A stretch of DNA of 43,757 nt from assembly GCA_964567205.1 (NCBI GenBank), contig CAZMKW010000003.1, forward strand, positions 1 to 43,757. Direction: 5' to 3'. A program made the translations under genes and the position numbers. Of the stretch, positions 6,300 through 36,629 are shown piece by piece; the first letter of the stretch is position 1, and each line of letters begins with the position of its first letter. Below the pieces are notes generated by a model, which saw only the letters and a list, made by a program, of their open reading frames with translations, was not told where the DNA came from and did not search any database. The DNA is from an uncultured Candidatus Saccharibacteria bacterium (GTDB lineage: Bacteria > Patescibacteriota > Minisyncoccia > Minisyncoccales > Staskawiczbacteraceae).

Positions 6300-7608
6300 A
6301 TTTTCCGCCAAGGGCGGACTATCCTCCGGCTGGGATGTTGTCGTTGTAGGCGCTGGTCCTGCGGGAATTATGGCGGCGGGTACGGCAGCAAGGTCCGGGC
6401 TGAAAGTTGCCTTGATAGAAAAAAATGCGGAGCTTGCTAAAAAGTTGCTTCTGACCGGCAACGGAAGATGTAATTTAAGTAATGCAGAATTTTCCTCCAA
6501 AGGCGGACCAGCCTCTGGTTGGAATTTGCGAGAACTCGTGAAAAATTATAATAACGGGGAATTTTTATTTCACGCTTTTTCTGTTTTTGGACCGGAAAAA
6601 ACAATTAAATTTTTTGAAGAGTTGGGATTGAAAACTAAAATTGAAGGCAAGAAAGTTTTTCCAAAAAGCGACAACGCCAAGGAAGTGTTAGAAGCCCTAA
6701 AAAAATATTTAACAAAAAATAAAGTCAATCTGTTTTTTAATTCAAAAGTTAAAGAAATTGTTTGCACCGGTAAAAAAATCAAAAAAATAATTTTAAGCGA
6801 CCTTTCAACGAGTTCGGGGCAGGCTAGAGAAATAGTTGCAAAAAAATATATTCTTTGTGCCGGGGGGAAATCTTATTCTGCAACCGGCTCTGACGGTTCA
6901 GGCTACGATTTAGTAAAAAAATTGGGGCACACCATTGTTAAACCTAAACCCGCTTTGTGTCCGATAATGGTAAAAGAAGACTGGGTCAAAAACTTACAGG
7001 GAACAAGCTTAGATGATGTGGAAATCAGTGTATTTCAAAACGGAAAAAAAGTGGCTCACGAATACGGAGAAATTTTGTTCACGCATTTTGGCCTAAGCGG
7101 GCCTGCTATTTTGAATATCAGCGGGAAGGTGGGGGATTTGTTAGAAAGGGGAGAAGTAAAAATGTATTTTGATTTATTCCCCCTGCTTAACCACGAGGAA
7201 CTTTTAAAAGGGTTTGAAGATGTTTTAAAACAAAATGCTAACAAAACGGTTAAAAATATACTCTCCACATTTGTGCCGGAAAAGTTGGCTGAAATTTTAG
7301 CAGATATCATAAAAGTAGATAAAAATAAAATAGCCAACAATCTGTCAAAAGTTGAGAGGGCAGTTATTGTTAAAATTTTTAAAAATATTGAGATAGCCCC
7401 GGAAAGTGTTTTAGATTTTGATGTCGCTAAGGTTACGAGAGGAGGAATATCTTTAAAAGAAATAGATCATAAAACAATGAAATCTGAATTGATCAGTAAT
7501 TTATTTTTTGCAGGTGAAATTATTGATGTAGACGGCGCTACAGGAGGATTTAATTTGCAGGAGTGTTGGAGCACCGGGTATTTAGCGGGCAAGAGTGTCA
7601 CACTTTAA
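6280..7608 (+). CDS. HI0933/YhiN (BaiN-like) NAD(P)/FAD-dependent flavoprotein
   Basis: GAGPAG, TGNGRCN, LFTHFGLSGP, GEIIDVDGATGGFN; start taken at ATG 6280. Confidence 0.93.
   Translation: MAEEDIKFSAKGGLSSGWDVVVVGAGPAGIMAAGTAARSGLKVALIEKNAELAKKLLLTGNGRCNLSNAEFSSKGGPASGWNLRELVKNYNNGEFLFHAFSVFGPEKTIKFFEELGLKTKIEGKKVFPKSDNAKEVLEALKKYLTKNKVNLFFNSKVKEIVCTGKKIKKIILSDLSTSSGQAREIVAKKYILCAGGKSYSATGSDGSGYDLVKKLGHTIVKPKPALCPIMVKEDWVKNLQGTSLDDVEISVFQNGKKVAHEYGEILFTHFGLSGPAILNISGKVGDLLERGEVKMYFDLFPLLNHEELLKGFEDVLKQNANKTVKNILSTFVPEKLAEILADIIKVDKNKIANNLSKVERAVIVKIFKNIEIAPESVLDFDVAKVTRGGISLKEIDHKTMKSELISNLFFAGEIIDVDGATGGFNLQECWSTGYLAGKSVTL
6304..6333 (+). mobile_element. 30-nt in-frame double-hairpin element, copy 1
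   Basis: TCCGCC AAG GGCGGA CTATCC TCC GGCTGG = SAKGGLSSGW between TTT and GAT. Confidence 0.8.
6493..6522 (+). mobile_element. 30-nt in-frame double-hairpin element, copy 2
   Basis: TCCTCC AAA GGCGGA CCAGCC TCT GGTTGG = SSKGGPASGW between TTT and AAT. Confidence 0.8.
6801..6824 (+). repeat. In-frame mini-insertion, STSSGQ-type
   Basis: cctttcaacgagttcggggcaggc = LSTSSGQA; 15/24 identical to 5264-5287, differences mostly transitions. Confidence 0.55.
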
Positions 7609-7722
7609 TTAGAGAATACAGAGACGGTGCCACATTTTTCTGCTAAGGGACAAATTCGCCCTGGTGGAAATTGAGATGGTTTTCTGATAGAATTATAAAT
7701 TATTATTAAAAATAATAAAGGT

Positions 7723-8457
7723 ATGGTTTTGTTAAATATTTTAATAGCTTGTTTTTTAATAAGTCTCTGCGTTTGGGTGGCTGTCCTATTTTTGTTTTTT
7801 AAGAAAGAAACGCTTTCTAAAATAACAATGTTCTTAGTTTCTCTTTCTGCAGGAGCTTTGATTGGCGGTGCTTTTTTGCATTTATTGCCAGAAGCTTCTG
7901 AAAAAATGGAGCCAGAGAGGTTATTCTTCTTTGTGTTATCCGCTTTTGTCGGTTTCTTTTTGATAGAAAAGTTATTTCACTGGCGACATTGTCATAAAGA
8001 AAATTGTGAAGTTCATTCATTAGGTTATATGAATTTAGTCGGAGACTCTCTGCATAATTTTATAGATGGACTAGTAATCGCTAGCGTCTTTTTGGTAGAT
8101 TCTAAATTAGGAGTGATAACAACGCTTGCTATAGCCTTGCATGAAATACCTCAAGAGATTGGTGATTTCGGAGTTCTTATACACGCAGGATTTAATAAAA
8201 CAAAAGCATTGGTATGGAATTATTTAGTTGCAACCACAGTTATTTTAGGTGGAGTTGCAGGATACCTCGCCGCTTTTTACATTGATGGCGCGATGGCGTA
8301 TCTCTTACCAATAGCCGCCGGCGGATTTATTTATATTGCCGCTTCTGATTTGATGCCGGAAATAAGAAAAGAAAGTGATGTCAAAAAATCAATTATATCT
8401 TTTGGTATATTTTTGGTGGGAATTGTTATAATGTTTGCTGTAAAGTTTTTGGAATAG
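7723..8457 (+). CDS. ZIP family metal transporter
   Basis: HWRHCH loop, DSLHNFIDG, ALHEIPQEIGDF. Confidence 0.95.
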   Translation: MVLLNILIACFLISLCVWVAVLFLFFKKETLSKITMFLVSLSAGALIGGAFLHLLPEASEKMEPERLFFFVLSAFVGFFLIEKLFHWRHCHKENCEVHSLGYMNLVGDSLHNFIDGLVIASVFLVDSKLGVITTLAIALHEIPQEIGDFGVLIHAGFNKTKALVWNYLVATTVILGGVAGYLAAFYIDGAMAYLLPIAAGGFIYIAASDLMPEIRKESDVKKSIISFGIFLVGIVIMFAVKFLE

Positions 8458-8490
8458 CAGATCGTTTATTGCACGTTCCAGTATTGTATT

Positions 8491-8519
8491 AAAAAAGAGG
8501 GAACCGCACCCTCTTTTTT
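8491..8519. terminator. Intrinsic terminator
   Basis: aaaaaagaggg-aaccgca-ccctctttttt. Confidence 0.75.
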
Positions 8520-8528
8520 GTTTGCTTG

Positions 8529-8559
8529 TTGACGTGAGATAGTTATGGGTATATACTCA
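8529..8559 (+). promoter_or_regulatory. sigma70 promoter with near-palindrome over the -10
   Basis: TTGACG-17-TATACT; tgggtat/atactca at 8546-8559. Confidence 0.6.
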
Positions 8560-8624
8560 ATATAGAGGAGTAAATTAAAAGAAAGGTCGTTTCTCTAATA
8601 TTAAAAAAAATAAAATATAAAAAT

Positions 8625-8876
8625 ATGCCAAAATTAGATGGAACAGGTCCTTCGGGACAAGGTCCTAAAACTGGCAGAGGAATGGGTAATTGCGGTGGAG
8701 GTAGAGGAATGGGATGGGGCAGAGGATATGGATGCGGTTGTGGGGGCGGATTGTTTGGTAGGATGTTTTACACAAAGGAAGAAAGGGACGAATTATTGAA
8801 AGATAGAGCAACAATGCTAGAGGAGGAATTAAAAGCAGTTAAGGAAGAATTAGCTGAAAAAAAGGATAAGAAATAA
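8625..8876 (+). CDS. DUF5320-like Gly-rich protein
   Basis: MPKLDGTGPSGQGPKTGRGMGNC signature plus C-terminal coiled coil. Confidence 0.85.
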   Translation: MPKLDGTGPSGQGPKTGRGMGNCGGGRGMGWGRGYGCGCGGGLFGRMFYTKEERDELLKDRATMLEEELKAVKEELAEKKDKK

Positions 8877-8975
8877 AGAAACCGACTGGCCTCTTGAATA
8901 AAAGGGGCTAGTTGGTTCTATGGTTTGAATAAGATAATAGCAAGCTATAAAATAAAAAAAGTTAACACTGTGATT

Positions 8976-9926
8976 ATGAAAAAGAATTTATTTATCTTTG
9001 TTATAGTTATTATTTTAATCTTCATTATTGGCTTATGGTTTATAAATTTTAAGTTTTTTAAACAAAATGAAATTTTTGGATTAGATGAAGAAGTTAATGG
9101 AATTATGATTCTTATCGAATCTACGGATAAACCAGCTGGATTATCTAATATGGCGAATGAAATGAAAAAAAGAAACATTTACGGCCTTTTGATGGTCACT
9201 CCAGAGTTTGCTCAAGCAAATTGCGATGAAATAAAAAATACTCTTGATATTGGTAATATAGAGATTGTTGCATCTAATGTTGGCGCACCATTTTGGGACG
9301 TGCCATACGATGAGCAGAAAACAAGAATTATTAAAATGTTGGACGGAATTGAGTTGTGTACTGGTATAAGACCAAGAATTATTTCATCTCGATATATGGC
9401 CTCCGATATGAATACTGTAAAAGTCGCAGAAGATTTGGGGATACCCTATATAACCGCCAGGGGAACAACCGGAGATAAGGCTACCGTTTATCAGCCAGAA
9501 GGCTATAATGTAAAGATTTTATCTGTTTCGAATATTCCACTTGTACCCTTTAAATATGGAAGTCTTTGTGATTATTCTTTTTATGAAAGATCCGGCACCC
9601 CAAACGACATGAAAGAAGAACTAATGAGAGCAATAGAACCATTAACACCTAAAGAGAAAACCTGGCTTGGTCAATATTCTAAAGTAACTCCAGTGTCACA
9701 TACTTATATAGGAGGGTCTTTAAAGCAATGGAACGACATGTGGATTGACTTCTGGGATAGTGCTAATATTAAATGGGTGGATTTAGATGATTTTATGGTA
9801 AAAGTGGATTGGACAATTCCACTGTGGCAAATTCCTACAAACAAGAATAATCCTTATACAGAAGAAAAAATCAGACCACTGATTCCCTACGAAGAAGAAG
9901 CAAAAATAAATAATATTTGTGAATAA
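8976..9926 (+). CDS. Membrane-anchored protein, possible polysaccharide deacetylase-like fold
   Basis: N-terminal TM (MKKNLFIF...); EIVAS...YDEQK..I..CTGIRP pattern recalls NodB family, but canonical metal ligands are not evident. Confidence 0.55.
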   Translation: MKKNLFIFVIVIILIFIIGLWFINFKFFKQNEIFGLDEEVNGIMILIESTDKPAGLSNMANEMKKRNIYGLLMVTPEFAQANCDEIKNTLDIGNIEIVASNVGAPFWDVPYDEQKTRIIKMLDGIELCTGIRPRIISSRYMASDMNTVKVAEDLGIPYITARGTTGDKATVYQPEGYNVKILSVSNIPLVPFKYGSLCDYSFYERSGTPNDMKEELMRAIEPLTPKEKTWLGQYSKVTPVSHTYIGGSLKQWNDMWIDFWDSANIKWVDLDDFMVKVDWTIPLWQIPTNKNNPYTEEKIRPLIPYEEEAKINNICE

Positions 9927-9986
9927 TAAAATTGAATCAAAAAAGCCATCTCTGAAAAGTATTTACGCAAAAAAATCAGAAATAAG

Positions 9987-10997
9987 ATGAAGGAAAAAAT
10001 ATCTATAATTTCAATATTAGCCAATGTGGTTTTAGCTGGGGGGAAAATTAGCATTGGTGTATTTTCAGGTTCTGCAGCTATTTTAGCGGAAGGGATTCAT
10101 TCCTTTATGGATATTTTCTCTTCAGTTGTTGGTTATATCGGAATTAAAATATCTACAAAACCAGAGGACCAAAAACATCCTTATGGTCATTATAAATTTG
10201 AGGTCTTGGCTGGAGTGATTATTACTTTGATTCTTTTGGTAACGGGAATAGGGATAATATGGGGAGCCTATAATAATTTTCTAAATCCGGAAAAGATAGA
10301 AGTTGGCTATTTAGCTTTTGGGATAATGATATTCTCGGCGGCTGTAAATGAAGTAATGGCTCGCCTAAAAATTTATTTCGGGAAAAAGGAAAACTCTATC
10401 GCACTGTTGTCTGACGGACTTCATTCGAGGGTTGATGTTTTTGCTTCCTTGGTAGTTTTTGTTGGATTAGCTCTAACGAAATACTGGATCTTTATCGATT
10501 CGGGCCTGGCACTTTTAATTGGGCTTTATATTGTTAAAGAGTCTTTTTCTTTGGGTAAAGAGGCAGTTAATTCCTTGTTGGATGTTTCGGCGGGTCCGGA
10601 GATTGAAGAAGAAATAAAAAAAATTATTATAGCTCGAGGTATCGAGGTAGGCGTAGTAAGAACTCAGAAAAAAGGATCTGCTGTTACAGCAAATTTAGAG
10701 GTGAAAATCCCAAGCAATTTAAAAGTAGAAGAAGCAACAAAAATTTCTGAAGATTTAAGAAAAGAATTAATGGAAAAAATTAAAAGTCTTTCTTATGTTG
10801 CTATTCAAATAAAAAGTCATAATGTTGAAACCGGATTTTATAAGCCCGTATTTGGCAAGGGATTCGGCTGGCAGAGGCAAGGACCGGGAGGTTATTGCGT
10901 TTGTCCGAAATGCGATTATAAGGCAGAGCATAGGGTGGGCACGCCATGTTCATCTCTTCGATGTCCAAAATGCAATATTAATTTAGAAAGAAAATAA
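9987..10997 (+). CDS. Cation diffusion facilitator with C-terminal Cys-rich tail
   Basis: [19 protein letters not shown]; tail CVCPKC..H..C..CPKC. Confidence 0.93.
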
Positions 10998-10998
10998 C

Positions 10999-11541
10999 AT
11001 GGTTCCCAAAAATATTTTTTTAACTAAAGGCGTCGGAGTTCATAAAGATAGATTGGCAAGTTTTGAGTTATCACTAAGAGACGCTGGAATCGAAAAATGC
11101 AATTTAGTTTGCGTGTCATCAATTTTCCCCCCGAATTGTAAAATGGTTTCGAAAGGCGACGGTGTCAAGTTACTAAATCCTGGGGAAATAACCTATTGTG
11201 TTATGGCTAGAAACGAAAGCAATGAGCCAAACAGATTAATTTCAGCGTCCATTGGGTTGGCTATACCTAAAGACGGAGATCAATACGGCTATCTTTCTGA
11301 ACATCATGCTTTTGGAGAAAAGGGAGAAAGGGCTGGAGAGTATGCGGAAGATCTGGCGGCGACAATGCTAGCAACCACCCTTGGAATTGATTTTAATCCT
11401 GATACGGCATGGCAAGAAAGAGAGCAAGCTTATAAATCATCAGGACATATTTTTAAGACAGCCAATATTACTCAATCATCAGAAGGTGACAAGACGGGTC
11501 TTTGGACTACTGTGATTGCGGTAGCTGTTTTTATTGAATAA
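10999..11541 (+). CDS. pdaD: Pyruvoyl-dependent arginine decarboxylase
   Basis: [25 protein letters not shown] (Ser-Ser cleavage site), GYLSEHH. Confidence 0.9.
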
Positions 11542-11545
11542 TAAC

Positions 11546-11821
11546 ATGACAAGACCAAGACTTTGTAGGAGAATAGGATTTAATCCAAGCGTTACGTATT
11601 TTAAACCTCAAGGAGTGCCAATGAGATTTTTGGAGGTGGTTGATTTAACTGCAGAAGAGTTAGAAGCCCTGAGACTAAGAAATATAAATGATTTGGAGCA
11701 AGGGGAAGCTGCCAAAAAAATGAATACATCACAGAGCACTTTTCAAAGAATTTTGTCTTCGGCCTATAAAAAGGTGAGCGAAGCTTTGATAGAAGGAAAA
11801 GCAATAAAAATAGTTAAATAG
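11546..11821 (+). CDS. DUF134 family putative DNA-binding protein
   Basis: RPRLCRRI..YFKPQGVP..EELEALRL..AAKKMNTSQSTFQRIL. Confidence 0.9.
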   Translation: MTRPRLCRRIGFNPSVTYFKPQGVPMRFLEVVDLTAEELEALRLRNINDLEQGEAAKKMNTSQSTFQRILSSAYKKVSEALIEGKAIKIVK

Positions 11822-11911
11822 TTTTTTATTTTTTGCCTCAGCTAATTTTTTTATTTTGCCCTACGGGTATTTTTTTGCTACAATACACAAATATTTAAAC
11901 AACGTTATCAC

Positions 11912-12832
11912 ATGATTAAAATATATCAAAAAAGAATAGTAGATTCCGAAATAAAAGAGGTGGGAGAATTTAGACCCGGATCTTGGATATGCGCGCAAAA
12001 AGCCAGCGAAGAAGAGGTCGCTGTTTTAGAAAGGGATTTTAAATTGGATTCAAATATATTAAAAGATGCCCTAGATCCTTTTGAAGCTCCTCGCGTGGAA
12101 ACCGAAGGCGGGATAGTGTACATATTTACGAGGGTGGCTCAAAAATTGGAGGAGAGAATTATCACAGTTCCCTTATTAATAGTCATCGGTCCGGATTTTG
12201 TTTTAACGCTTTCAAAAGATGAGAACCAAATTCTTAATAAATTTATGGATAACGGTTTAAAATTTACAACAACGCAGAAGACTCAGTTACTTTTGATAAT
12301 TTTTTCTGAAATAATGAAAAGCTACAACAGTTTTTTAACTTCGATAAGCAGGAACGTGAGAGAGGCAAGCGGAAAAGTTGGAAAGATAAATGAGAAAGTT
12401 ATTATGAATTTTGTCGGATTTGAAGAGGAGTTAAATGATTTTCTTTCGGCCCTCACTCATACAAGTCCTGTTTTACAGAACATATTAGGAGGAAAACTTA
12501 TAAAGCTTTATCAGCAGGATGGTGAGTTGATGGAAGACTTAATTCTAAGCGCAAATCAGTTGATAAGTTTGTGTCAGTCTACACTTAAAAATATTGTTAA
12601 TATTAGAGAGGCCTATTCCACAATAGTTACGAACGATCTTAACAGAGTCATCAAGCTATTTACATCCCTTACGGTTATACTCACAATTCCAACAATTATT
12701 GCCAGCATGTATGGTATGAACGTGGGGCTTCCTTTGGCGGGAAACCCGGGAGCTTTTTGGATAATATCTTTGGCGATAGTTGTTATCGTTTCGGGTGTTT
12801 TATATGTATTCAGCAGGAATAGATGGCTGTAA
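11912..12832 (+). CDS. corA: CorA family Mg2+ transporter
   Basis: YGMN motif between two C-terminal TMs. Confidence 0.92.
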   Translation: MIKIYQKRIVDSEIKEVGEFRPGSWICAQKASEEEVAVLERDFKLDSNILKDALDPFEAPRVETEGGIVYIFTRVAQKLEERIITVPLLIVIGPDFVLTLSKDENQILNKFMDNGLKFTTTQKTQLLLIIFSEIMKSYNSFLTSISRNVREASGKVGKINEKVIMNFVGFEEELNDFLSALTHTSPVLQNILGGKLIKLYQQDGELMEDLILSANQLISLCQSTLKNIVNIREAYSTIVTNDLNRVIKLFTSLTVILTIPTIIASMYGMNVGLPLAGNPGAFWIISLAIVVIVSGVLYVFSRNRWL

Positions 12833-12854
12833 TTTGTAAGGTTGAGTAAAAAAG

Positions 12855-12885
12855 AAAAACCACCTTTTAACGGAGGCGGTTTTTT
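12855..12885 (+). terminator. Intrinsic terminator
   Basis: aaaaaccacctt/gaggcggttttt hairpin after corA. Confidence 0.6.
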
Positions 12886-12902
12886 GGTAGAATTGAGGAA
12901 AG

Positions 12903-15587
12903 ATGCAAAATCAATGGTACACAAAATCAATTGCAGGGGTTTTTGAAGATATAAGGTCTAGTGAGGGGGGATTGAGTAGTAGAGACGCGACGTTGCGACT
13001 TAAAGAATACGGATTGAATAAATTGCCGGAAGCTAAACCAGACGGGATTTTTTATATTTTTTTACATCAATTTCAAAGTTCTCTTATTTATATACTTTTG
13101 CTTGCAGGAGCTATTGTTTTTGCTATGGGAGAGTTTGTTGACGGATTTATTATTTTGTTCGTGCTTGTTTTTAATGCGGTTGTTGGGACTATCCAAGAAG
13201 GAAAGGCACAAAATACTTTATTGGCTCTTAAAAAATATACAGAAACCAAGACTATTGTCGTACGCGATGACCTAGAATTTATTATTGCGGATACGGACGT
13301 TGTGCCAGGAGATATAATTGTTTTGCAAGAAGGGGAAAAAGTCCCCGCTGACGCGCGCGTGATTTTATCGAACAATTTAAAAGCAGACGAATCGACCTTA
13401 TCTGGAGAATCTGTGCCGGTAAATAAAATTGTTGAACCGATAGAGAGAGAATATTTGCCTACACCAGAGCAAAAAAATATTATTTTTAAAGGAACAAACA
13501 TATTGTCTGGCAGTGGGCGAGCTGTTGTTGTCGCAACGGGTGTTAATACTGAGATAGGTAAGATAGCAAAAGCAATGACGGCTATAGACGCAGAAGTTCC
13601 CTTGAAAAAGAATGTCCGTTATTTGTCTGGAATTATTGTTGTAGTAACAATAATTTTAAATATTGTTTTGTTTGTTGCGGGACTTTTATCCGGCAAAAAT
13701 ATAAGAGAAATGTTTGTTATGTTGGTTTCTCTTTCTGTCTCTATTATTCCGGAGGGCCTGCCGGTTGTGCTTACACTAATTTTAGCAACGGGTGTATGGA
13801 GAATGAGCAAGCGAAACGCTTTGGTTAAAAAACTTCAGGCGGTTGAGGCGCTAGGGCAGGCGGAAGTAATTGCAGTTGATAAAACGGGAACCATTACAAA
13901 AAACGAAATGGTGGTCCAAAAAGTGTTTGTAGATAATAGAACTTTTGAGATCGGCGGAATAGGATACGAGCCAAAGGGTGACGTTAAAATGAACGGGGAT
14001 CAGGTTGATCCGCTAAACCATCAGGAGTTAATTTTTATGGCAAAAAACGCCGCATTATGCGCGGAAGCTATGGTATTTTTTTCAAAAAAAGAAAAAAAGT
14101 GGATAACAAGGGGCGATCCCACAGAGGCCGCGTTGCTGGTGATGGCTCAGAAGATAGGCTTTCATAAAAACATTTTAGAACGAGAGTCGCCGTCTATGGC
14201 AGAATTTCCTTTTGATTATCATCTTAAGTATAGGGCTTCGTTGCGTAAAACGGAAAATAGGAAGTTTTTAATAGTCGCCGGTGCGCCGGAGAGCATATTG
14301 GCAATATCAAACAAAATTTGGAAAAACGAGAAGAATCAGCCGTTATCTGAATCTGAGAAAAATAAATTAACAGGAATTTTTGAAAAAATGTCAGAAGACG
14401 GACTTAGGGCTGTAGCGTTGGGAATAGACAATAATCCAGATAAAGATGTTTCGGCAGAAAAAATAGAGAAAATTACATTTGTCGGATTTTTAGGTATGAA
14501 AGACGCGCTGAGACCAGAAGTTCCGGACGCAATGGCTCGCGCATTGAAAGCGGGAGTGCGCATAGTTATGATTACTGGCGACCATAGGATTACAGCAAAA
14601 GCTATCGCCACGGAAGCTGGTATTTATAAAGAGGGAGATGAAATTGTTACGGGAGAAGAGCTAGATAAAATGAGCGACGAATATCTTGCCGGAAAAATTA
14701 AAAAAGTTTCTGTTTTTGCCCGGGTTTCTCCGGAACACAAATTAAGAATAATTAAAGCGTTCAAAATAGCTAAAAAAATTATTGCGATGACAGGGGACGG
14801 AGTAAACGACGCGCCCTCGCTTGTTATGGCTGATCTCGGCGTGGCTATGGGTCAGATAGGCACAGAGGTCGCCAAAGAAGCATCGGATATTATTCTTTTA
14901 GACGATAATTTTGGAACTATTATCTCTGTTATAGAGGAAGGAAGAAGCATTTATAAAACCATAAAAAAGGTTATTCTTTATCTTTTTTCTACCAGCATTG
15001 GAGAGGTTTCAGTTATAGCTGGAGCGCTTTTTTTGGGATATCCTTTGCCTATTTTACCTGCGCAAATTATTTGGCTTAATTTTGTGACGGACGGTTTTCT
15101 TGATGTGTCTTTGGCGATGGAGCCAAGTGAAAATAACTTGCTTTCTGATAAGTTTAAAAAACCCAACAAATATTTAGTAGATTTTTTAATGGCGCAAAGG
15201 ATGTTTTTTATGGCTCTACCGATGATGATAGGAACCCTATTTGTCTTTAAAATATTTTTAGGCTCAGATCTGATAAAAGCTCAAACAATGGCGCTTTGTG
15301 TTTTGGCGGCAATCCAATGGTTCAATGCCTGGAATTGTAAGTCAGAAGATAAATCAATTTTTAAAACAAACCCTCTGTCGAATAAATTTTTGGTTGGCGC
15401 CACGGCTATTGTTATATCACTGCAATTATTAGCAGTTTATAATCCTTTTTTACAAAAAATATTACACACGGTTCCCCTTAAAGGAAAAGACTGGTTGTTA
15501 ATTATTACAGTGGCCCTTTCTGTGGTTGTTGTAGAAGAAGTTAGAAAATTAATTTATAGGTTATGGAAAAAACATTTTGTTGGCTAA
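12903..15587 (+). CDS. P-type cation-transporting ATPase (type II, Ca2+-like)
   Basis: SGES, IPEGLP, DKTGT, MITGD, TGDGVND. Confidence 0.96.
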   Translation: MQNQWYTKSIAGVFEDIRSSEGGLSSRDATLRLKEYGLNKLPEAKPDGIFYIFLHQFQSSLIYILLLAGAIVFAMGEFVDGFIILFVLVFNAVVGTIQEGKAQNTLLALKKYTETKTIVVRDDLEFIIADTDVVPGDIIVLQEGEKVPADARVILSNNLKADESTLSGESVPVNKIVEPIEREYLPTPEQKNIIFKGTNILSGSGRAVVVATGVNTEIGKIAKAMTAIDAEVPLKKNVRYLSGIIVVVTIILNIVLFVAGLLSGKNIREMFVMLVSLSVSIIPEGLPVVLTLILATGVWRMSKRNALVKKLQAVEALGQAEVIAVDKTGTITKNEMVVQKVFVDNRTFEIGGIGYEPKGDVKMNGDQVDPLNHQELIFMAKNAALCAEAMVFFSKKEKKWITRGDPTEAALLVMAQKIGFHKNILERESPSMAEFPFDYHLKYRASLRKTENRKFLIVAGAPESILAISNKIWKNEKNQPLSESEKNKLTGIFEKMSEDGLRAVALGIDNNPDKDVSAEKIEKITFVGFLGMKDALRPEVPDAMARALKAGVRIVMITGDHRITAKAIATEAGIYKEGDEIVTGEELDKMSDEYLAGKIKKVSVFARVSPEHKLRIIKAFKIAKKIIAMTGDGVNDAPSLVMADLGVAMGQIGTEVAKEASDIILLDDNFGTIISVIEEGRSIYKTIKKVILYLFSTSIGEVSVIAGALFLGYPLPILPAQIIWLNFVTDGFLDVSLAMEPSENNLLSDKFKKPNKYLVDFLMAQRMFFMALPMMIGTLFVFKIFLGSDLIKAQTMALCVLAAIQWFNAWNCKSEDKSIFKTNPLSNKFLVGATAIVISLQLLAVYNPFLQKILHTVPLKGKDWLLIITVALSVVVVEEVRKLIYRLWKKHFVG

Positions 15588-28670: not shown

Positions 28671-28681
28671 TTTAAAAAATC

Positions 28682-29723: not shown

Positions 29724-29737
29724 GAAACAAAGTCTAA

Positions 29738-29768
29738 AAAAATCAAGCGTGAAAATCGCTTGATTTTT
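29738..29768 (+). terminator. Terminator directly after rplK
   Basis: aaaaatcaagcg/cgcttgattttt. Confidence 0.8.
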
Positions 29769-29822
29769 GTTTTGGCAAAGTGGTAGAATAATGGATACTA
29801 AAATTATTAATATATTTGTAAT

Positions 29823-30467
29823 ATGGAGAACCAAAAATATATACGTCCGTCATGGGACGAATACTTTTTAAACTTATTAGAACCAATAGGTAGCAGAGGA
29901 AGTTGTGATAGGGGAAGAAGCGGAGCCGTTATTGTTAGCCCTGGGCATACAATAGTCGCAACAGGATACGTTGGAGCGGCTCCAGGTCAACCGCATTGTG
30001 ATGAGGTGGGGCACATGATGAACACTGTAATACACGAAGACGGAACTCAATCTCAGCATTGTGTGAGAACATTGCATGCAGAAGAAAATGCAATTTTGCA
30101 GTGCGCTAAAGACGGAATAAGCGTTCAGGGAACAACAATATATTGCAAGATGGTGCCTTGCTATAACTGCGCCATGAGAATCGTTAGGGTGGGCGTTAAA
30201 AGAGTAGTTGCAATGAAGAGATATCATGCAGATCAAAAATCCATAAAACTTTTTAGAGACGCAGAAGTTAATTTAGTTATTATGGATAACACCATTGAGC
30301 CGTATGAAAATCAAGGAGGAAAAATTGAAAACGTAAAAGAAAACGAAAAATTGGACGATGAAGTAAGCTATGCGAACAGCGACCTGCAAGAATTTAAAAG
30401 TTTAAAGGAAATTTTAATGGAGGAGGGAAAGATAGAAGAGCTCCCTCAGGAATTTGAACAATCTTAA
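29823..30467 (+). CDS. dCMP deaminase (ComEB-like) with acidic C-terminal tail
   Basis: RPSWDEYF, HAEENA, PCYNC. Confidence 0.92.
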   Translation: MENQKYIRPSWDEYFLNLLEPIGSRGSCDRGRSGAVIVSPGHTIVATGYVGAAPGQPHCDEVGHMMNTVIHEDGTQSQHCVRTLHAEENAILQCAKDGISVQGTTIYCKMVPCYNCAMRIVRVGVKRVVAMKRYHADQKSIKLFRDAEVNLVIMDNTIEPYENQGGKIENVKENEKLDDEVSYANSDLQEFKSLKEILMEEGKIEELPQEFEQS

Positions 30468-30469
30468 AT

Positions 30470-31075
30470 ATGGCAGACAAAAACGACGAACAAATTTTAG
30501 TTGTTAAGTCAGATATAATTTTTGAAAAGGGTAAGTGGCAGGGTTTGAAAACCGACAATCTGGATTATTATATTGATTTAATAAAAAAGAATTGCGAATT
30601 TAAAAGAAGAGGGGATGTGGAAAATGACTCTTCCTTTCAACAGGTAATTCCTTATATGCTTTTTTCCAGTGGAGGTAAATTTTTCGCTTACAAATATCTG
30701 GCTAGCGCCGGGGAGCAAAGGTTGGTAAACAATAATTATCAGCTTGGAATTGGAGGGCACATAAATAAAGACGATATAAAAGATGGCAAAGATGTTTTAG
30801 AAGAAGGAGCCAGGAGAGAATGGGAAGAAGAGGTTAATTTTAAGGGTAATTTTTTGCAAAAGAAATTGGTTGGAATTGCAAAAGACGAAACAACGTCCGT
30901 AGAAGAAGTGCATATCGGATTGGTTTACCATTTTATCGGCGACAGCTCGGAAATTACAATAAAGGAAACAGATAAGATGGAGGGGAAATTATTTGATTTG
31001 AAAGATATTGGAGCAAGCTTAAGCCACAGCCCATGGATGCAAATAGTTTATAACGAGTATTTGTCTAAATTATGA
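30470..31075 (+). CDS. NUDIX/MutT-like phosphoesterase
   Basis: QQVIPY, GIGGHIN, GARREWEEEV. Confidence 0.85.
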   Translation: MADKNDEQILVVKSDIIFEKGKWQGLKTDNLDYYIDLIKKNCEFKRRGDVENDSSFQQVIPYMLFSSGGKFFAYKYLASAGEQRLVNNNYQLGIGGHINKDDIKDGKDVLEEGARREWEEEVNFKGNFLQKKLVGIAKDETTSVEEVHIGLVYHFIGDSSEITIKETDKMEGKLFDLKDIGASLSHSPWMQIVYNEYLSKL

Positions 31076-31695
31076 AGTTTAAAAATATTATTTTTGATTG
31101 GTCCGGGGTGATAAAAGATGCTTTGAATGCCCATGTATGGGTGGTGAACGAAATGATGGAGAGATTGGGGAAAAAGAAATTATCTTTTAATGAATTGAAG
31201 GAAAATTGGGAACAGCCATATTTGAATTTTTGGAGGAAATATTGTCCGGAGTTGACATTGGCTGAGGAGCAAAAAATTTATTATGAAGTTATTGGGAGCA
31301 AAGATTGCCCGAAATCGGATTCTTGCCTTGGAGTCATAGATTTTATTAAAAAATTAAATATAAAAAAGGTCCGCATGTCAGTGGTAAGTTCTGATCCCAC
31401 CGAAAGGCTTCTGCAAGAAATAAAAGGGTTTGGTTTGGAAAATATTTTTGATGAGGTAATTACTAACGCGCACGATAAATCCGAAGGAGTGAATGAGTTG
31501 ATTAAAAAATATGATTTCAATCCTGAAGAAACGGTTTTTATCGGCGATAGCAACCACGAAGTTGAAGTTGGAAAAGAGGCGGGAATAAAAACAATTGCTG
31601 TAACGTGGGGGTTTTGCACTGAAGAAAAACTAAAATCAACTGATCCTGATTATTTGGTGCATAATATTAAAGAATTAGAAGAAATTTTATTATGA
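31072..31695 (+). CDS. HAD family hydrolase
   Basis: IIFDWSGVI, FIGDSNHE, AVTWG. Confidence 0.88.
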   Translation: MKFKNIIFDWSGVIKDALNAHVWVVNEMMERLGKKKLSFNELKENWEQPYLNFWRKYCPELTLAEEQKIYYEVIGSKDCPKSDSCLGVIDFIKKLNIKKVRMSVVSSDPTERLLQEIKGFGLENIFDEVITNAHDKSEGVNELIKKYDFNPEETVFIGDSNHEVEVGKEAGIKTIAVTWGFCTEEKLKSTDPDYLVHNIKELEEILL

Positions 31696-33890
31696 AAACG
31701 GGTAAATTTTTCGTTTTTGAGGGCATAGACGGATGTGGGAAGTCAACGCAAACAAAATTACTGGCTGAATATTATAAACAGAAAGGTTTTGAAGTTGAGA
31801 AGATTGACTTCCCTCAACATGGGGAGAGGTCGTCAGCTATGGTTGATGATTACTTAAATGGGAAATATGGAACATCGGAAGAGGTTGGGCCTAAAATTGC
31901 TTCTGTTTTTTATGCGACCGATAGATATGACGCAAGCCTAAAAATAAAAAAGTGGCTTGATGAGGGAAAGATTGTAATATCGGATAGATATTTGGTTTCT
32001 AATATCGGGCACCAGGGAGGGAAGATCAAAGATAAGGAAGAATGGAAGAAGTATGTAAACTGGCTTTATGATTTAGAGTACGGAATTTTTAAAATTCCCA
32101 AACCGGATTTTACGTTTATATTAAAAACTTCCGTTGAATCCTCGATGAAGCTTTCAAATAGTATAACCGATGGGGAAAAACAGCAAAGAAGGATCAGTTA
32201 TTTAGGCGACGATAAAAAACAGGATATCCACGAAAAAAATAACAGCCATTTGGAAAATGCTTTAAACTCCTATTTGATGGCAGCTAAGGAATTCCCAAAT
32301 GATTTTGAAGTCATAGAGTGCTTGGAGAAAGAAGAATTATTATCAGCAGAAACTATAAATAATAGGATTATTAAAATAATTGAAGAAAACAATAAACACA
32401 TGCCAGCAGAAAGAAGAATTTATACGTTGCCAAATAATTTAATGCCGGAGGTAAAAGCGGTGACTTTTGCTAAGTGCTCAAGGTCCGCTGAGCCTTTTGA
32501 TAAAATTGCCGCCGAACTAACAGACGAAAAATCAGCGGAGTTTCATGAAAAATGGGTAGTGGGGTTTGGGCACTCGTCTATTGCCGAACACGCCGTAATC
32601 TCGCTGGCAGTTGAAAATGTTTCCAATATAGCCACAAAAGTTATAGAAGATTGTAGGCTTGCTTCATTTACTGAAAAATCTTCCAGATATCAGATTTTTA
32701 ATAAAGATAAGTTATATATGCCAGAGAATGTGATGAACTCTGAGTTGAGAGAAATTTATCTGGACGCGGTTAATTCTTTAATGGACGCTTATGAAGAAAT
32801 GACCGCGCCCATGATGGATTTTGTTAGGCAAAAATATCCGAGACCTGATGATCAAGACGAAAAGTTGTACAATATGGTTTCTAAGGCAAGAGCTTGCGAT
32901 AATTTAAGATATTTGTTGCCTACGGCTGTTTTGACAAACCTGGGCATGACAATAAACACGAGAGAGTTAGAGCACCTTATAAAAAAGTTATTGTCGCATC
33001 CGCTAAAAGAAATGCAGGATATTGGAGCTGAGATGAAAGAAAAGGCAATGGAGGCTGTCCCTACTCTGTTAAAATTTGCTAATAAAAACAATTATATAAT
33101 TGAAACTAAAAAACAGTTAAAAAATATTGCCGATTGGGAATTGGGTAGGCAGGCGGGAAATAATCAGGCGGTTACAATTGTAGATTACGATACCGACGCA
33201 ATAAATAAGCTCATCGCCGGGATACTTTATCCGTATTCTGATTTATCTTACGAAGAAATCGCCAAAAAAGTGAGTAATATTTCAGATGAGAAAAAAGAAA
33301 AAATAATTGATGAAACGCTGAAAAGAAGAGAGAAGTTTGACCAACCGTTAAGGGAGTTAGAGCATATTTATTATACATTCGATATTTTATTGGATTACGG
33401 AGCATTCCGAGATGTACAGCGTCATAGAATGTGTACGCAATCTAACCAGCCCGTAACAGTTGTACACGGATATGACTTGCCCCCGGAAATTAGGGAGATG
33501 GGATTTTCTGCCCAAGGCGGACCAGCCTCGGGCTGGGAGGAAAAGTTTAAGGCAGTGGTAGAAAAGTCAGTTGAGGCTTATAATAGAATATATGAGAAGT
33601 TTCCGGAAGAGGCGCAGTATGTTGTGCCCCTGTGTTTTAGAAAAAGAGTGTTGATAACTTGGAATTTAAGAGAGTTGCATCATTTTATTTCTTTAAGATC
33701 CGGTAAAAAAGGGCACGCTTCTTACAGAAGAATCGCCCAGCAGTGCTGGAGGGAATTAAATAAAGTTCAGCCCTTGCTTGCAAAATATATAAGAGTTGAT
33801 ATGGACGAAATGAATGTTTCCTGGGCGGCCTCACTAGAAAACAAAGATTTTTATTATAATCCATACGAAGCCAGACAGAACAAAAAATAA
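31692..33890 (+). CDS. tmk-thyX: Thymidylate kinase fused to a ThyX-like flavin-dependent thymidylate synthase
   Basis: EGIDGCGKST and SDRY (Tmk); GHSSIAEHA, SFTEKSSRY, QRHRMCTQS, NLRELHHFISLR (tandem ThyX-like domains). Confidence 0.88.
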   Translation: MKTGKFFVFEGIDGCGKSTQTKLLAEYYKQKGFEVEKIDFPQHGERSSAMVDDYLNGKYGTSEEVGPKIASVFYATDRYDASLKIKKWLDEGKIVISDRYLVSNIGHQGGKIKDKEEWKKYVNWLYDLEYGIFKIPKPDFTFILKTSVESSMKLSNSITDGEKQQRRISYLGDDKKQDIHEKNNSHLENALNSYLMAAKEFPNDFEVIECLEKEELLSAETINNRIIKIIEENNKHMPAERRIYTLPNNLMPEVKAVTFAKCSRSAEPFDKIAAELTDEKSAEFHEKWVVGFGHSSIAEHAVISLAVENVSNIATKVIEDCRLASFTEKSSRYQIFNKDKLYMPENVMNSELREIYLDAVNSLMDAYEEMTAPMMDFVRQKYPRPDDQDEKLYNMVSKARACDNLRYLLPTAVLTNLGMTINTRELEHLIKKLLSHPLKEMQDIGAEMKEKAMEAVPTLLKFANKNNYIIETKKQLKNIADWELGRQAGNNQAVTIVDYDTDAINKLIAGILYPYSDLSYEEIAKKVSNISDEKKEKIIDETLKRREKFDQPLRELEHIYYTFDILLDYGAFRDVQRHRMCTQSNQPVTVVHGYDLPPEIREMGFSAQGGPASGWEEKFKAVVEKSVEAYNRIYEKFPEEAQYVVPLCFRKRVLITWNLRELHHFISLRSGKKGHASYRRIAQQCWRELNKVQPLLAKYIRVDMDEMNVSWAASLENKDFYYNPYEARQNKK
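33507..33536 (+). mobile_element. 30-nt in-frame double-hairpin element, copy 3
   Basis: TCTGCC CAA GGCGGA CCAGCC TCG GGCTGG = SAQGGPASGW between TTT and GAG. Confidence 0.82.
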
Positions 33891-33894
33891 ATTT

Positions 33895-35349
33895 ATGAGT
33901 TATAAGCCCACAATAGGATTAGAAATACATGCTGAGCTTAAGACGCAAAGCAAAATGTTTTGTTCGTGTAAAAATGATCCGGATGAGCGACGGCCCAATT
34001 ATAATATTTGTCCTATTTGTACTGCGCAACCGGGAAGTTTGCCAGTAGCCAACGAGGAAGCGGTAAAAAAAGTTATAAAAACTGGGTTGGCTTTAAGTTG
34101 TAAAATTGCCGAAGATTCAAAATTTGATAGAAAAAATTATTTTTATCCGGATTTGCCTAAAGGATACCAAATTTCCCAATATGACCAACCATTATGTGAG
34201 GGTGGGTATTTAGAGATTGGTGGGCGAAAGATAGGAATAACCAGAATTCACTTAGAGGAAGACACGGGGAGTTTAATGCATCCAGAAGGAGCCGATTACT
34301 CGCTTATTAACCTAAATAGAGCGGGGGTGCCTCTAATGGAGTTGGTCACAGAACCAGAGATAACATCAGGGAGAGAGGCTCGTGAGTTTGCACAGGAGTT
34401 GCAGTTAATTTTTAAATATTTAGGAGTTTCAGATGCTGACATGGAGAAGGGGCTAATGAGAGTTGAGGTGAATATAAGTATAAGTAAGAATGATAAATTG
34501 GGGACCAAGGTTGAAATTAAAAACCTTAATTCATTTAAGGTAGTAGAGAAGGCGGTTGATTTTGAGATTGCCCGCCAGGAAGAAGTTTTAAAATCGGGAG
34601 AAAAAGTTGTGCAGGAAACGCGCGGTTGGCACGATAAAAAAGAAATTACATTTTCGCAAAGAGAAAAAGAAGAGGCGCATGACTACAGGTATTTTTCTGA
34701 GCCGGACTTGCCTCCAATGCATTTTGATAAAGAATATATTATTAAAATAAAAACAACTATGCCAGAGTTACCAGAGCAAAAAAGAGAAAGACTTAAAAAA
34801 GAATTCGGCCTAGAAGGGGCCGACGTAGAATTTTTTATTACTAATAAAGACCTGAGCGAATATTATGAGAAAGTTGTTTCCGAATTTGAGGAGTGGACTC
34901 CTGAGAATGAGGAAGGCCAATCACATAAAAAGGTTTCGAAATTAATTGCCAACTATTTAATTTCAAACATACAAGGATTGTTGCAGGGAAAAGAGTTTGT
35001 AGAGAAAGAATTCAAAATTACTCCGGAAAATTTTGCAGAATTCATAAAGATGATTTATAAAAATGAAATTTCCAGTAAAGTTGCTAAAATGGTTCTACTG
35101 GAAATGTTTAATACGGGAGGCGATCCGTCAGATATTGTTGATGGAAATAATTGGAGACAAACGTCAGACGATGGCGAGTTAGAAAAAATAATAAAGGAAA
35201 TTATTTTAAACAATCCAAAGGCCGTGGAAGACTTTAAGGCGGGCAAGAAAAATGCTGTCCAATTTCTGTCTGGTCAGGTTATGGCTAAAACCCGCGGAAC
35301 GTCTAACCCCGAGAAGGTGCAAGAACTGCTAAAGAAGAATCTAGGGTAA
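33895..35349 (+). CDS. gatB: Asp/Glu-tRNA amidotransferase subunit B
   Basis: IGLEIHAEL, FDRKNYFYPDLPKGYQISQ, EIKNLNSF, DYRYF. Confidence 0.98.
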   Translation: MSYKPTIGLEIHAELKTQSKMFCSCKNDPDERRPNYNICPICTAQPGSLPVANEEAVKKVIKTGLALSCKIAEDSKFDRKNYFYPDLPKGYQISQYDQPLCEGGYLEIGGRKIGITRIHLEEDTGSLMHPEGADYSLINLNRAGVPLMELVTEPEITSGREAREFAQELQLIFKYLGVSDADMEKGLMRVEVNISISKNDKLGTKVEIKNLNSFKVVEKAVDFEIARQEEVLKSGEKVVQETRGWHDKKEITFSQREKEEAHDYRYFSEPDLPPMHFDKEYIIKIKTTMPELPEQKRERLKKEFGLEGADVEFFITNKDLSEYYEKVVSEFEEWTPENEEGQSHKKVSKLIANYLISNIQGLLQGKEFVEKEFKITPENFAEFIKMIYKNEISSKVAKMVLLEMFNTGGDPSDIVDGNNWRQTSDDGELEKIIKEIILNNPKAVEDFKAGKKNAVQFLSGQVMAKTRGTSNPEKVQELLKKNLG

Positions 35350-35360
35350 TATAAATTTGC

Positions 35361-35402
35361 AAAAAAAGAGGCTCGCAGAGTAGGACGCTCCGCGAGCCTT
35401 TT
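35361..35402. terminator. Bidirectional terminator
   Basis: aggctcgc/gcgagcct with A and T tracts. Confidence 0.75.
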
Positions 35403-35405
35403 GTT

Positions 35406-35624
35406 TTATCGAAACCGTTGTTCTTGTTCGCGGTATTTGCGATGGAAAAGAATTGAAGGGCGGTTCCATACGCGGATAACCCACGCCAAGCCGAGTATGA
35501 GCAAGCCCACCAGGAAAAGGATGTTTGCCCCTGCGATATAGCTTATGACAATTAGGGAGATGCTTGTCGCAAGCAAAAAAATGGCGACCCAGTACATTAG
35601 ACACGAGAAAGTCTTCTTTTTCAT
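35406..35624 (-). CDS. Small 2-TM hypothetical protein (orphan cassette)
   Basis: GAAAGGGA RBS before ATG 35624; TTGACA at 35714-35709. Confidence 0.65.
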   Translation of the reverse strand: MKKKTFSCLMYWVAIFLLATSISLIVISYIAGANILFLVGLLILGLAWVIRVWNRPSILFHRKYREQEQRFR

Positions 35625-35702
35625 TGGAGTCCCTTTCGTTAATATGTCAAAAAGCAAAATCGGATGCGCTTACGTTGTTTATCCTATTTAACTCTAATAT
35701 TG

Positions 35703-36629
35703 TTATTTTGTCAACAAAAATTTCTGGCACCATTTTTGGCTTTCACTGTAGTTTTGTACCCATAAAATGCGATTATCTCTCTTAAACCAGGTCATTTGTC
35801 TTTTGGCGTAGTGTTCTGATTCTATTTGAATATTATCTGACATTTTTTGGTAGGAGATCTTATTCTGTATATATTGTGCGACAAAGCGATATTCTAATCC
35901 AAACTCTTCAAGGCGTTTCCATGACACGCCAGATTTGTGAAGTTTTTTAACTTCATTTATCATCGCGTTGTTTTTTAGTCTTTTTATTAGCCGTTTATGT
36001 ATTAAATTTTTTAATTCGTTTCGCGGTTTTTCAACACCTATTTGTAAAATATCCCAGCCTTTGGCTGGTCCGTCTCCGGCGGAAAATTGTTTAGAAGGTA
36101 CTGGTTTACCGGTTTTTAGGACTATCTCCAGTGCACGTACTAGTCTTCTGGGGTTTTGGTTATCGATAGCCTTAGCACGTTCTGGATCTAATTTTTTCAA
36201 TTTATCAAATAGTTGTTCTAGTGTTAATTTCTCAAGTTTCTTTCTTAGGTTCCAATCCGGTTTTACTTCGGGAATAATAATACCATCAACAATTGATTGT
36301 ATATAAAAACCTGTTCCGCCAACCAGGAATGGAATGCGGTCTTTTTTTTGTATATTTCTAATGGTTTTTAACGCCAGTTTTTGGTATTGCGCCACAGAAA
36401 ATCTTTTTCTCGGATTAGCCACATCCAGCAAATGATGGGGAATTCCTGCCATTTCTTTTTTTGTAACCTTGCCTGACCCGATATCCATTCCTTTATAAAC
36501 CTGTCTTGAGTCAGCCGAAACCACCTCGCCGTTAAATTTCTTGGCTAACTTAATAGACAGTCCGGTTTTTCCGGAAGAAGTTGGACCCAAAATTACAATT
36601 AATTTATTATTTTTCCCACTAGCGACCAT
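35703..36629 (-). CDS. miaA: tRNA dimethylallyltransferase
   Basis: GPTSSGKT, SADSRQVY, VGGTGFY, YAKRQMTWF. Confidence 0.97.
   Translation of the reverse strand: MVASGKNNKLIVILGPTSSGKTGLSIKLAKKFNGEVVSADSRQVYKGMDIGSGKVTKKEMAGIPHHLLDVANPRKRFSVAQYQKLALKTIRNIQKKDRIPFLVGGTGFYIQSIVDGIIIPEVKPDWNLRKKLEKLTLEQLFDKLKKLDPERAKAIDNQNPRRLVRALEIVLKTGKPVPSKQFSAGDGPAKGWDILQIGVEKPRNELKNLIHKRLIKRLKNNAMINEVKKLHKSGVSWKRLEEFGLEYRFVAQYIQNKISYQKMSDNIQIESEHYAKRQMTWFKRDNRILWVQNYSESQKWCQKFLLTK
36054..36083 (-). mobile_element. 30-nt in-frame double-hairpin element, copy 4
   Basis: Minus strand TCCGCC GGA GACGGA CCAGCC AAA GGCTGG = SAGDGPAKGW between TTT and GAT. Confidence 0.82.

Follow-up and report, generated by a model that had tools for sequence, protein, structure and literature searches.

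A 30-nt double-hairpin element inserted in frame into genes of Staskawiczbacteraceae, probably a family of miniature mobile DNA

The stretch of DNA analysed here (the window), the 43,757 nucleotides of contig C3 (CAZMKW010000003.1, GenBank assembly GCA_964567205.1) of an uncultured Candidatus Saccharibacteria bacterium placed by GTDB in the Staskawiczbacteraceae, contains a 30-nt element four times. The element joins a pair of GC-rich hairpins directly end to end, each with a 6-bp stem and a 3-nt loop. The copies add ten codons each, in frame, to three unrelated enzyme genes. The element probably represents a family of miniature mobile DNA resembling repetitive extragenic palindromes (REPs) and MITEs (miniature inverted-repeat transposable elements), filtered by selection to the frame that encodes Ser/Ala/Gly/Pro loops. 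An earlier note, made from the window sequence, had proposed a non-autonomous, repeated insertion element with a short flank preference, and the exact indels, the empty TTT|RA sites, and the lack of target duplication described below agree with that proposal.

Results

Copies in the window and stem pairing

Searching the window with the IUPAC pattern of the earlier note (≤3 mismatches) returned exactly four matches, compared with none in 100 dinucleotide-preserving shuffles, which upholds the count of four 30-nt double-hairpin copies. The first hairpin of the element is TCCGCC-N3-GGCGGA, and the second opens with CCAGCC, TCCGCC, CCCGCC, or TCAGCC, followed by the 3-nt loop and the complement. 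Copies 1 and 2 (6304–6333 and 6493–6522, plus strand) lie in the gene of an HI0933-like flavoprotein, the former at a Phe (TTT)/Asp (GAT) junction directly before the first Rossmann strand and the latter at a Phe (TTT)/Asn (AAT) junction. Copy 3 (33507–33536, plus strand) lies in the ThyX part of a Tmk-ThyX fusion, at a Phe (TTT)/Glu (GAG) junction, and copy 4 (36054–36083, minus strand) in miaA, at a Phe (TTT)/Asp (GAT) junction. All four copies thus follow a TTT codon, with GAT, AAT, GAG, and GAT downstream, and in the frame of the host open reading frame (ORF) all four read S-A/S-x-G/D-G-P/L-A/S-x-G-W. No flanking direct repeat was found at any of the four copies, as expected from the claim that the target is not duplicated.

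The loops vary and the stems are mostly kept, as described from the window, but three of the four window copies carry stem mismatches: the second hairpin of copy 1 has decayed (CTATCC/GGCTGG), each stem of copy 2 has one mismatch, and copy 4 has a single mismatch in its first stem. Copy 3 differs by one base from a common ‘master’ sequence. Minimum-energy folds of the window copies as single-stranded DNA (ssDNA) range from −6.4 to −9.2 kcal/mol (z, −1.5 to −3.2), and the full double hairpin appears in the minimum-energy structure of the ThyX copy only.

In a stem alignment of 94 coding copies from the genus (64 distinct), 97.4% of the stem cells are paired. Two pairs of columns, both in the second hairpin, covary (16/30, CG 34 and UA 26; 18/28, CG 34 and AU 26); these four positions were left free by the search pattern, and the observed covariation score was reached by none of 500 shuffles. 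The compensatory changes keep the pairing and alter the encoded peptide (S..G, P..W, or P..G). Complementarity between the flanks beyond the consensus was not detected at coding copies (observed equal to control), and a flanking stem of at least 5 bp accompanies 11% of the non-coding copies in other phyla compared with 3% of controls, so that a flanking stem exists in a subset only.

Filled and empty sites

Homologs of the three host proteins show exact 10-residue gaps at all four sites, in keeping with the remark that the text reads naturally once the 30 nt are deleted. Site 1 of the HI0933-like flavoprotein is filled in 7 of 118 homologs (two of the 120 homologs, without the N-terminus, were dropped from this tally and from the tree), and site 2 in 4 of 120, the other 116 having the exact 10-residue gap (NAEF|NLREL). 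The nearest homolog, at 78% identity, has neither insert, and one homolog (P0019) carries at site 2 the subtype in which the TCCGCC hairpin occurs twice. The ThyX insert was found in the window protein alone (1/120); the 119 proteins that do not have it include homologs with 92%, 90%, and 88% identity (over the searched region, residues 430–732) that read ...AGF|E.... The MiaA insert was found in this genome only and was absent from the MiaA matches of the 24 other same-genus genomes that have one. Exact 10-residue indels and empty TTT|RA sites, the outcome that alignment to orthologs was meant to look for, are therefore present, and most orthologs do not carry the peptides, unlike what broadly conserved native sequence would show. 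Because the empty sites retain the flanks, the flanks pre-exist the insertion and belong to the target rather than to the element.

In a tree of the flavoprotein homologs (FastTree, midpoint rooting, no support values) built with the insert columns removed, each filled tip is isolated. Fitch parsimony counts seven changes for the seven filled tips at site 1 and four for the four at site 2, the same as with shuffled labels. Occupancy is thus recurrent and independent; the scattered tips may reflect the same sites being hit independently or clean loss many times over, and either would imply base-exact mobility.

The reverse comparison placed 80 coding copies of 14 relatives against this genome, where 26 had no spanning match and 54 could be aligned. 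Opposite nine of the 54, this genome shows an exact 10-residue gap and retains the residue on either side (the alignment is poor for one of them, L117), and at five sites this genome is filled at the same position. One empty target lies in the window itself, a TTT|GAT in gatB (GatB by Pfam) at 34723–34728 on the plus strand, with the junction at 34725|34726. At that exact position the ortholog in the copy-rich relative G010 is filled (L124:216), by a copy of the twofold TCCGCC subtype.

Lake-water metagenome DNA was represented over window positions 33000–37000 by contigs from four of 13 runs (X1, X4, X8, and X12). The miaA copy is spanned unchanged by contigs of three independent runs (X1, X4, and X8). 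At the ThyX copy the contigs break, with a roughly tenfold higher summed depth and loose ends with mixed flanks, which mark further insertion sites in that community. Each of the four runs also has contigs with a tandem form, copy-TGTT-copy (window 33504–33537). The depth of the element in lake-water contigs is ~10× that of its flanks, with many different flanks, so it is abundant across the lake community.

Flanks, frame, and strand

Among the matches listed for the genus and order (20 further matches lie outside the set), 94 of 105 genus copies occupy frame 0 of ORFs that are 120 amino acids or longer. Around these 94 coding copies the flanks are strongly constrained, with T at −2 in 87, a purine (R) at +1 in 93, and A at +2 in 87; TTT is the upstream codon of 53/94, compared with 4.2% in the codon background, and the codon that follows encodes E, K, D, or N in 87/94. 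At the protein level the preceding residue is hydrophobic and the following residue charged or polar, each in 87/94. Of the remaining 11 genus copies, apparently non-coding or in other frames, most keep TTN|RAA when read in the canonical orientation, flanks that also surround non-coding copies of other lineages and of viral contigs. Since non-coding copies keep the flanks, the preference is a property of the DNA and not of the protein. The search across the genome and its relatives thus recovered a TT(T)|RA preference, where an absence of any flank preference had been named as grounds for abandoning the idea.

A native peptide module would explain part of this. Under such an account selection acts on F-S-A-x-G-G-P-A-x-G-W as a functional unit that these proteins acquired (linker, tag, or modification site), and repetition of the nucleotides is secondary, which would fit the constant frame, the residue classes on either side, and the placement of the inserts in loops or at termini. 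It sits poorly with nucleotide identity that includes synonymous positions, across species with host proteins 50–70% identical and across phyla; with compensatory stem changes that alter the peptide and preserve the pairing; with the occurrence of the same element and flanks outside coding DNA, within tRNA fragments, and in further reading frames; and with the many orthologs that do without the insert. We regard a peptide module as very improbable, and favour a DNA element that the coding frame tolerates.

The claim that every copy lies on the sense strand, in one frame and after TTT, was accurate for the window and nearly so for the genus, where two to four cases of other frames or antisense were seen, but it does not extend to other lineages: their low-GC loci hold 18 sense copies in frame 0, and 13 that are antisense or in a different frame inside ORFs of at least 200 amino acids. 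Within the genus the bias is severe. The 60 frame-0 copies with a second stem unlike the first, most of which are clearly oriented, are all sense (60/60), with none in antisense frame 0. The ORFs of the genome offer 1316 TTT|RA targets in frame 0 and 1377 in frame 2 of the sense strand, and 1010, 313, and 1235 in the antisense frames. The frame-0 peptide is rich in Ser, Ala, Gly, and Pro and the peptides of the other frames in Pro or Arg; constancy of frame would then reflect filtering by selection.

Orientation was further compared with that of neighbouring genes. In contexts of 16–20 kb, all 16 oriented copies are sense to their gene, three of them in genes opposed to their neighbours, and the miaA copy of the window may be another case of a sense copy in a gene that runs against its neighbours. 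GC skew of the host genes was considered as a proxy for the replication strand and dropped, as it separated majority- from minority-oriented genes weakly (0.167 ± 0.081 vs 0.083 ± 0.086), and these local gene-orientation contexts were used instead.

A separate kind of target was noticed in tRNA-like sequence. At several loci (L092, L093, and L120, each at 601–630, and L242, L256, L259, L277, and L279) the insertion point of the element is the T55/C56 junction of a tRNA T-loop (GGTT|CRA). The loop never belongs to a working tRNA; it is part of a duplicated 3′ fragment (T-arm and acceptor strand) ~20–250 nt downstream of an intact tRNA-Leu, -Pro, or -Glu, and such insertions were seen in several phyla. 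The 3′ fragment could be an integrase att remnant serving as a safe target, or a by-product of insertion.

Translation of the insert

None of the 94 coding copies has a stop in frame 0, compared with 8 of the 11 non-coding genus copies, which end in TGA or have TAG in a loop; no recognisable gene is interrupted by any of the 11. TGA-ended variants are also common in other genomes of the phylum, in non-coding DNA. Because stops occur in non-coding copies and never in coding ones, the insert is most likely translated rather than excised or bypassed. Mapping the inserts onto a predicted structure gave a compatible picture. The AlphaFold2 model of the flavoprotein (70 aligned homologs) has a mean predicted local distance difference test (pLDDT) score of 89.7 and falls below 50 solely at residues 1–14 and 72–80, which are the two inserts, both in coil.

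The earlier note had allowed for an RNA-level element, with the 30 nt either excised from the mRNA as a mini-intron or bypassed by the ribosome, so that the proteins would do without the ten residues. The strand bias has the form that removal after transcription would need, as the oriented genic copies of the genus are all sense and in frame 0 and orientation follows the gene even where that gene is locally in the minority, and the hairpins would form in RNA too. Yet removal would make frame and stops irrelevant, and the element keeps to frame 0 and avoids stops where it is coding, while stop-bearing variants are frequent in non-coding copies and in other genomes with no gene split. The flanking codons, TTT against GAN or AAN, do not match as a take-off and landing pair, decayed copies with broken stems persist within intact genes, and no match at the Rfam gathering score was found in the window (around the tRNA-fragment copies Rfam returned tRNAs alone). 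Removal at the RNA level therefore has very little going for it in our estimate, and translated inserts are the better account of the coding copies.

Distribution

The genome (559 kb, 38% GC, 44 contigs) holds ~16 double-hairpin loci, and TCCGCC is its most frequent perfect 6-3-6 hairpin stem (16/351). The labels of close homologs assign it to Candidatus Staskawiczbacteria, within Patescibacteria. Two main subtypes are present, an oriented one (TCCGCC-N3-GGCGGA then CCAGCC-N3-GGCTGG) and a quasi-palindromic one (TCCGCC-N3-GGCGGA twice). Fifteen loci are in frame 0 of long ORFs, including a half-decayed copy on contig C15 (G000:C15:7861) that falls outside the pattern counts, and one is intergenic; Phe lies upstream of 13 of the 15 coding copies.

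Beyond this genome the distribution is patchy. In the same genus 14 of 24 genomes are positive, with from 0 to ~40 copies per genome and with an identical master sequence recurring in several species, compared with 1 of the 16 other families of the order. A sample of the phylum yielded 59 of 401 genomes and 56 of 320 genera, and a reversed control pattern gave no matches. An exact-stem scan of species-representative genomes found at least 119 stretches, of which 80 loci (L202–L281) were analysed. Many Patescibacteria lineages are among them, as are loci labelled Planctomycetota, Omnitrophota, Candidatus Moanabacter, Kiritimatiellia, Lentisphaerales, Bdellovibrionales, and Gammaproteobacteria, on contigs of up to 647 kb. 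Some of these labels on short contigs may be mis-binning; chance does not account for the other-phylum matches (by estimate, ~0.004 expected for 24 fixed bases). Viral contigs contributed 14 stretches with the element.

In some lineages the 30-nt unit was observed inside longer repeated flanks, sometimes with an outer stem (G226, L166–L171; G105, L158–L161; G178, L172–L175; and the Moanabacter loci L209, L213, L232, and L262). In those lineages a larger unit, built around the hairpin pair, may be what moves.

Search for a mobiliser

As stated in the earlier note, the window holds no mobiliser gene: the single match of the genome to PF01797, the family of single-tyrosine (Y1) HUH nucleases, is on contig C36 (3054–3776). 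It encodes a ~240-amino-acid protein with HUH and Tyr motifs that resembles the REP-associated tyrosine transposases (RAYTs). On both sides of the gene (locus G000:C36:2996–3804) a palindrome of its own, GCGGAAG-N5-CTTCCGC, is present in opposite orientations, and a third copy lies in frame inside the RAYT-like coding sequence. RAYT-like genes occur in 14 of 26 genus genomes, and in relatives the homologs likewise have palindromes both at their flanks and internally, of a sequence that differs from one homolog to the next. Across 25 Y1 loci examined (the one on C36 and L133–L156), flanking palindromes that differ from locus to locus were present at ~15 and absent from the rest.

In the phylum sample PF01797 was found in 42 of 58 element-bearing and 147 of 342 element-free genomes (odds ratio 3.5, p = 5e-5). 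The suggestion of a co-occurring HUH/RAYT nuclease was thus borne out as to presence and phylum-level enrichment, but not as to adjacency to the element or significance within the genus. Overall, an ssDNA HUH/Y1 enzyme of the RAYT-like kind acting in trans is the most plausible mobiliser, an assignment we make tentatively. TnpB-type proteins (PF07282) were absent from all five genomes tested. A reverse transcriptase (PF00078) was also considered and rejected as mobiliser, as it showed no association (9 of 14 element-bearing vs 5 of 10 element-free same-genus genomes, p = 0.68).

Alternatively, no dedicated transposase is involved, and host replication and repair generate the copies by template switching, by strands slipping at palindromes, by hairpin oligonucleotides being caught up in breaks, or by gene conversion between copies, the T-rich/A-rich flanks being the sites of such events in an AT-rich genome. 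In its favour, no mobiliser is linked to the element, several element-rich genomes have no Y1, TnpB, or consistent reverse transcriptase, intrastrand correction can keep palindromes perfect without selection, and tandem copy-TGTT-copy forms exist in the lake metagenomes. Against it stand base-exact junctions at numerous independent sites, a five-position flank pattern kept across phyla, the recurrence of the same 30-nt sequence in unrelated phyla and viral contigs, and the phylum-level association of Y1 genes with the element. Exact junctions and flanks together with cross-phylum spread are easier to explain with a sequence-specific enzyme, and we consider host repair by itself an unlikely origin compared with mobile DNA acted on in trans.

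Discussion

A mobile element of this kind would work as follows. Mobilised in trans, it would insert precisely between TT(T) and RA(A) with no target duplication, would do so repeatedly at the same permissive sites, and would then decay copy by copy through point mutation. Its ten codons in frame 0 read Ser-Ala-x-Gly-Gly-(Pro/Ser)-Ala-x-Gly-(Trp/Gly), and a copy arriving between two codons, in a surface loop or at a terminus, would be translated and tolerated. A translatable insert in the gene-dense, AT-rich genomes of Patescibacteria would leave most surviving copies in frame in housekeeping genes.

Several observations weigh against this reading. The availability of targets does not account for either the frame or the strand of the copies, and the antisense frame-0 peptide (P-A-x-G-W-S-A-x-G-G) looks no worse than the sense one, which makes selection alone an uneasy explanation. 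That orientation tracks genes opposed to their neighbours argues against a purely replication-strand mechanism of the IS200/IS605 kind. The folding of the window copies, with stem mismatches in three of four, is modest. Translation of the insert would follow from the distribution of stops and frames rather than from direct observation. The 30-nt element flanks none of the 25 Y1 loci; the phylum-level Y1 test ignores kinship and general repeat load; and within the genus PF01797 was found in 8 of 14 element-bearing and 4 of 10 element-free genomes (p = 0.68). One relative with nine copies (G015, 97% complete) has no Y1 match, nor have G397 and G423 (~5–6 sites each, 6–8 pattern matches per strand, 98% complete). 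In the four lake-metagenome runs no empty/filled polymorphism, skip of the 30 nt, or indel was seen at the ThyX and miaA copies, in contigs from which rare variants are dropped, so that absence is not demonstrable from them.

More speculatively, the element might belong to a hitherto undescribed class of ultra-small, site-specific mobile DNA that moves as ssDNA, crosses phyla, and is perhaps phage-borne, its ten-codon length and sequence being shaped for a harmless flexible loop and its targets being TT|RA, including the T-loop of tRNA-like hairpins. The sense bias in Staskawiczbacteria would then stem from insertion into the non-template strand of transcribed genes and not from selection. We hold this extended version to be doubtful.

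Among the closest known systems are the REP and bacterial interspersed mosaic element (BIME) families with their RAYTs (REPtrons). They and the element both comprise short GC-rich palindromes, multicopy, often as dimers, with patchy copy numbers between species; at 30 nt, with two hairpins, ~16 copies here and ~40 in a relative, the element falls within the REP format of 20–40-bp multicopy palindromes and dimers. RAYT-like genes with their own palindromes, flanking and internal, are moreover abundant in this genus. A few REPs are reported within ORFs, and REPs carry a conserved GTAG or CGTC tetranucleotide at one end (PMC3733652). The element differs in its ends, TCCG... and ...CTGG or ...CGGA with no GTAG/CGTC tag in the 94 copies, in its directly abutting hairpins, in its location (~90% of genus copies are inside genes, whereas REPs are predominantly extragenic), and in flanking none of the Y1/RAYT-like loci examined.

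Insertion sequences of the IS200/IS605 group and their miniature derivatives share with the element hairpin-defined ends, insertion 3′ of a short T-rich sequence, lack of target duplication, clean empty sites, and strong strand bias. The element likewise inserts at a short flank, TT(T)|RA, through exact 30-nt (10-residue) indels with boundaries unambiguous to the base. The IS200/IS605 ends have subterminal, imperfect hairpins with adjacent guide and cleavage sequences, and their orientation is set by the replication strand. In contrast, the hairpins of the element are perfect, terminal, and abutting, leaving no bases for guide sequences within 30 nt, TnpB was not found in the genomes tested, and orientation seems to track the gene rather than the presumed direction of replication. 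The likeness to REP/RAYT and IS200/IS605 systems drawn in the earlier note hence stays an analogy, the RAYT-like genes found here being flanked by other palindromes.

Rickettsia palindromic elements (RPEs) are selfish palindromic repeats of about 100–150 bp, known from Rickettsia only; they lie in frame within genes that are unrelated to one another and often essential, in a reduced genome, and are translated as extra peptide. In-frame insertion of a palindrome into unrelated ORFs is common to both, and read-through would be as well. RPEs are several-fold longer and not known outside Rickettsia, whereas the element, with its 30 nt and a defined TTN|RA junction, occurs across many phyla.

The GC clusters of yeast mitochondria are described as mobile GC-rich hairpins of ~30–60 nt in an AT-rich genome, with conserved stems and variable loops (PMC4478555). 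They resemble the element in size, in GC-rich hairpins within an AT-rich genome, and in variable loops, and differ in that the element causes no target duplication and is mostly intragenic.

Programmed bypass and mRNA introns differ from the element in all of the respects noted above for RNA-level removal, namely the take-off and landing codons, the avoidance of stops in coding copies, and the Rfam search. Overall, the element departs from RPEs, REPs, and GC clusters in their defining features, namely the tag, the linkage to a RAYT, location outside genes, duplication of the target, and size. The literature searched (supplementary files were outside its scope) yielded neither a description of this element nor any account of in-frame palindromic elements from Patescibacteria or the Candidate Phyla Radiation (CPR).

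If the interpretation as mobile DNA is right, translatability would be a way for selfish DNA to persist where intergenic space is almost nil, and the element a steady source of 10-residue loop insertions into essential proteins of the CPR. It would account for unusual indels rich in Gly, Ser, and Ala, which upset alignments, the calling of orthologs, and predicted structures for these organisms, and its presence or absence could be used as a strain marker. Base-exact, duplication-free insertion of 30 nt at a short motif in several phyla points to an enzyme, and should a RAYT-like Y1 protein act on it in trans, the element would provide a tractable case of REP mobilisation, which is poorly demonstrated.

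Host genes and further observations

By Pfam, the window hosts are an HI0933-like flavin adenine dinucleotide flavoprotein gene (6280–7608, plus strand; copies 1 and 2), a thymidylate kinase-ThyX fusion gene (31692–33890, plus strand; copy 3), and miaA, for an isopentenyl pyrophosphate transferase (35703–36629, minus strand; copy 4). The flavoprotein start at 6280 is set from the N-termini of homologs, the start in the ORF list being 6223, and miaA belongs to a group of minus-strand genes that closes a contig whose genes are otherwise mostly on the plus strand. The host proteins that carry inserts have full-length Pfam matches. Elsewhere in the genome the element is inserted in frame across unrelated ORFs, with LeuRS, the DNA polymerase III delta′ subunit (holB), an S51 peptidase, FemAB, methionine aminopeptidase (MAP), ribosomal proteins S1 and L10, KsgA, Dus, RpoA, and UvrA joining MiaA and ThyX as hosts.

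Copies can accumulate in a single gene. In G010, one gene has three separate in-frame copies (L127, G010:C23:301–1797) and another has two (L109, G010:C3:1–5000), the latter with a reverse-transcriptase gene just upstream.

Loop length near insertion sites seems unstable. Minus its insert, the MiaA loop of the window protein is five residues shorter than that of orthologs, and gatB at 34987–35022 encodes five extra residues (VEKEF) in a KEF-VE-KEF repeat, at a place where G010 and G013 carry the element after ...(D/E)F. The miaA genes of relatives (L026 in G009; L051/L046 in G002) contain other GC-rich palindromic families in frame, so several palindrome families colonise coding loops in the genus; one of these palindromes (peptide ...GGVIPGGVRPGSDPGLTP...) occupies the same loop as the window copy.

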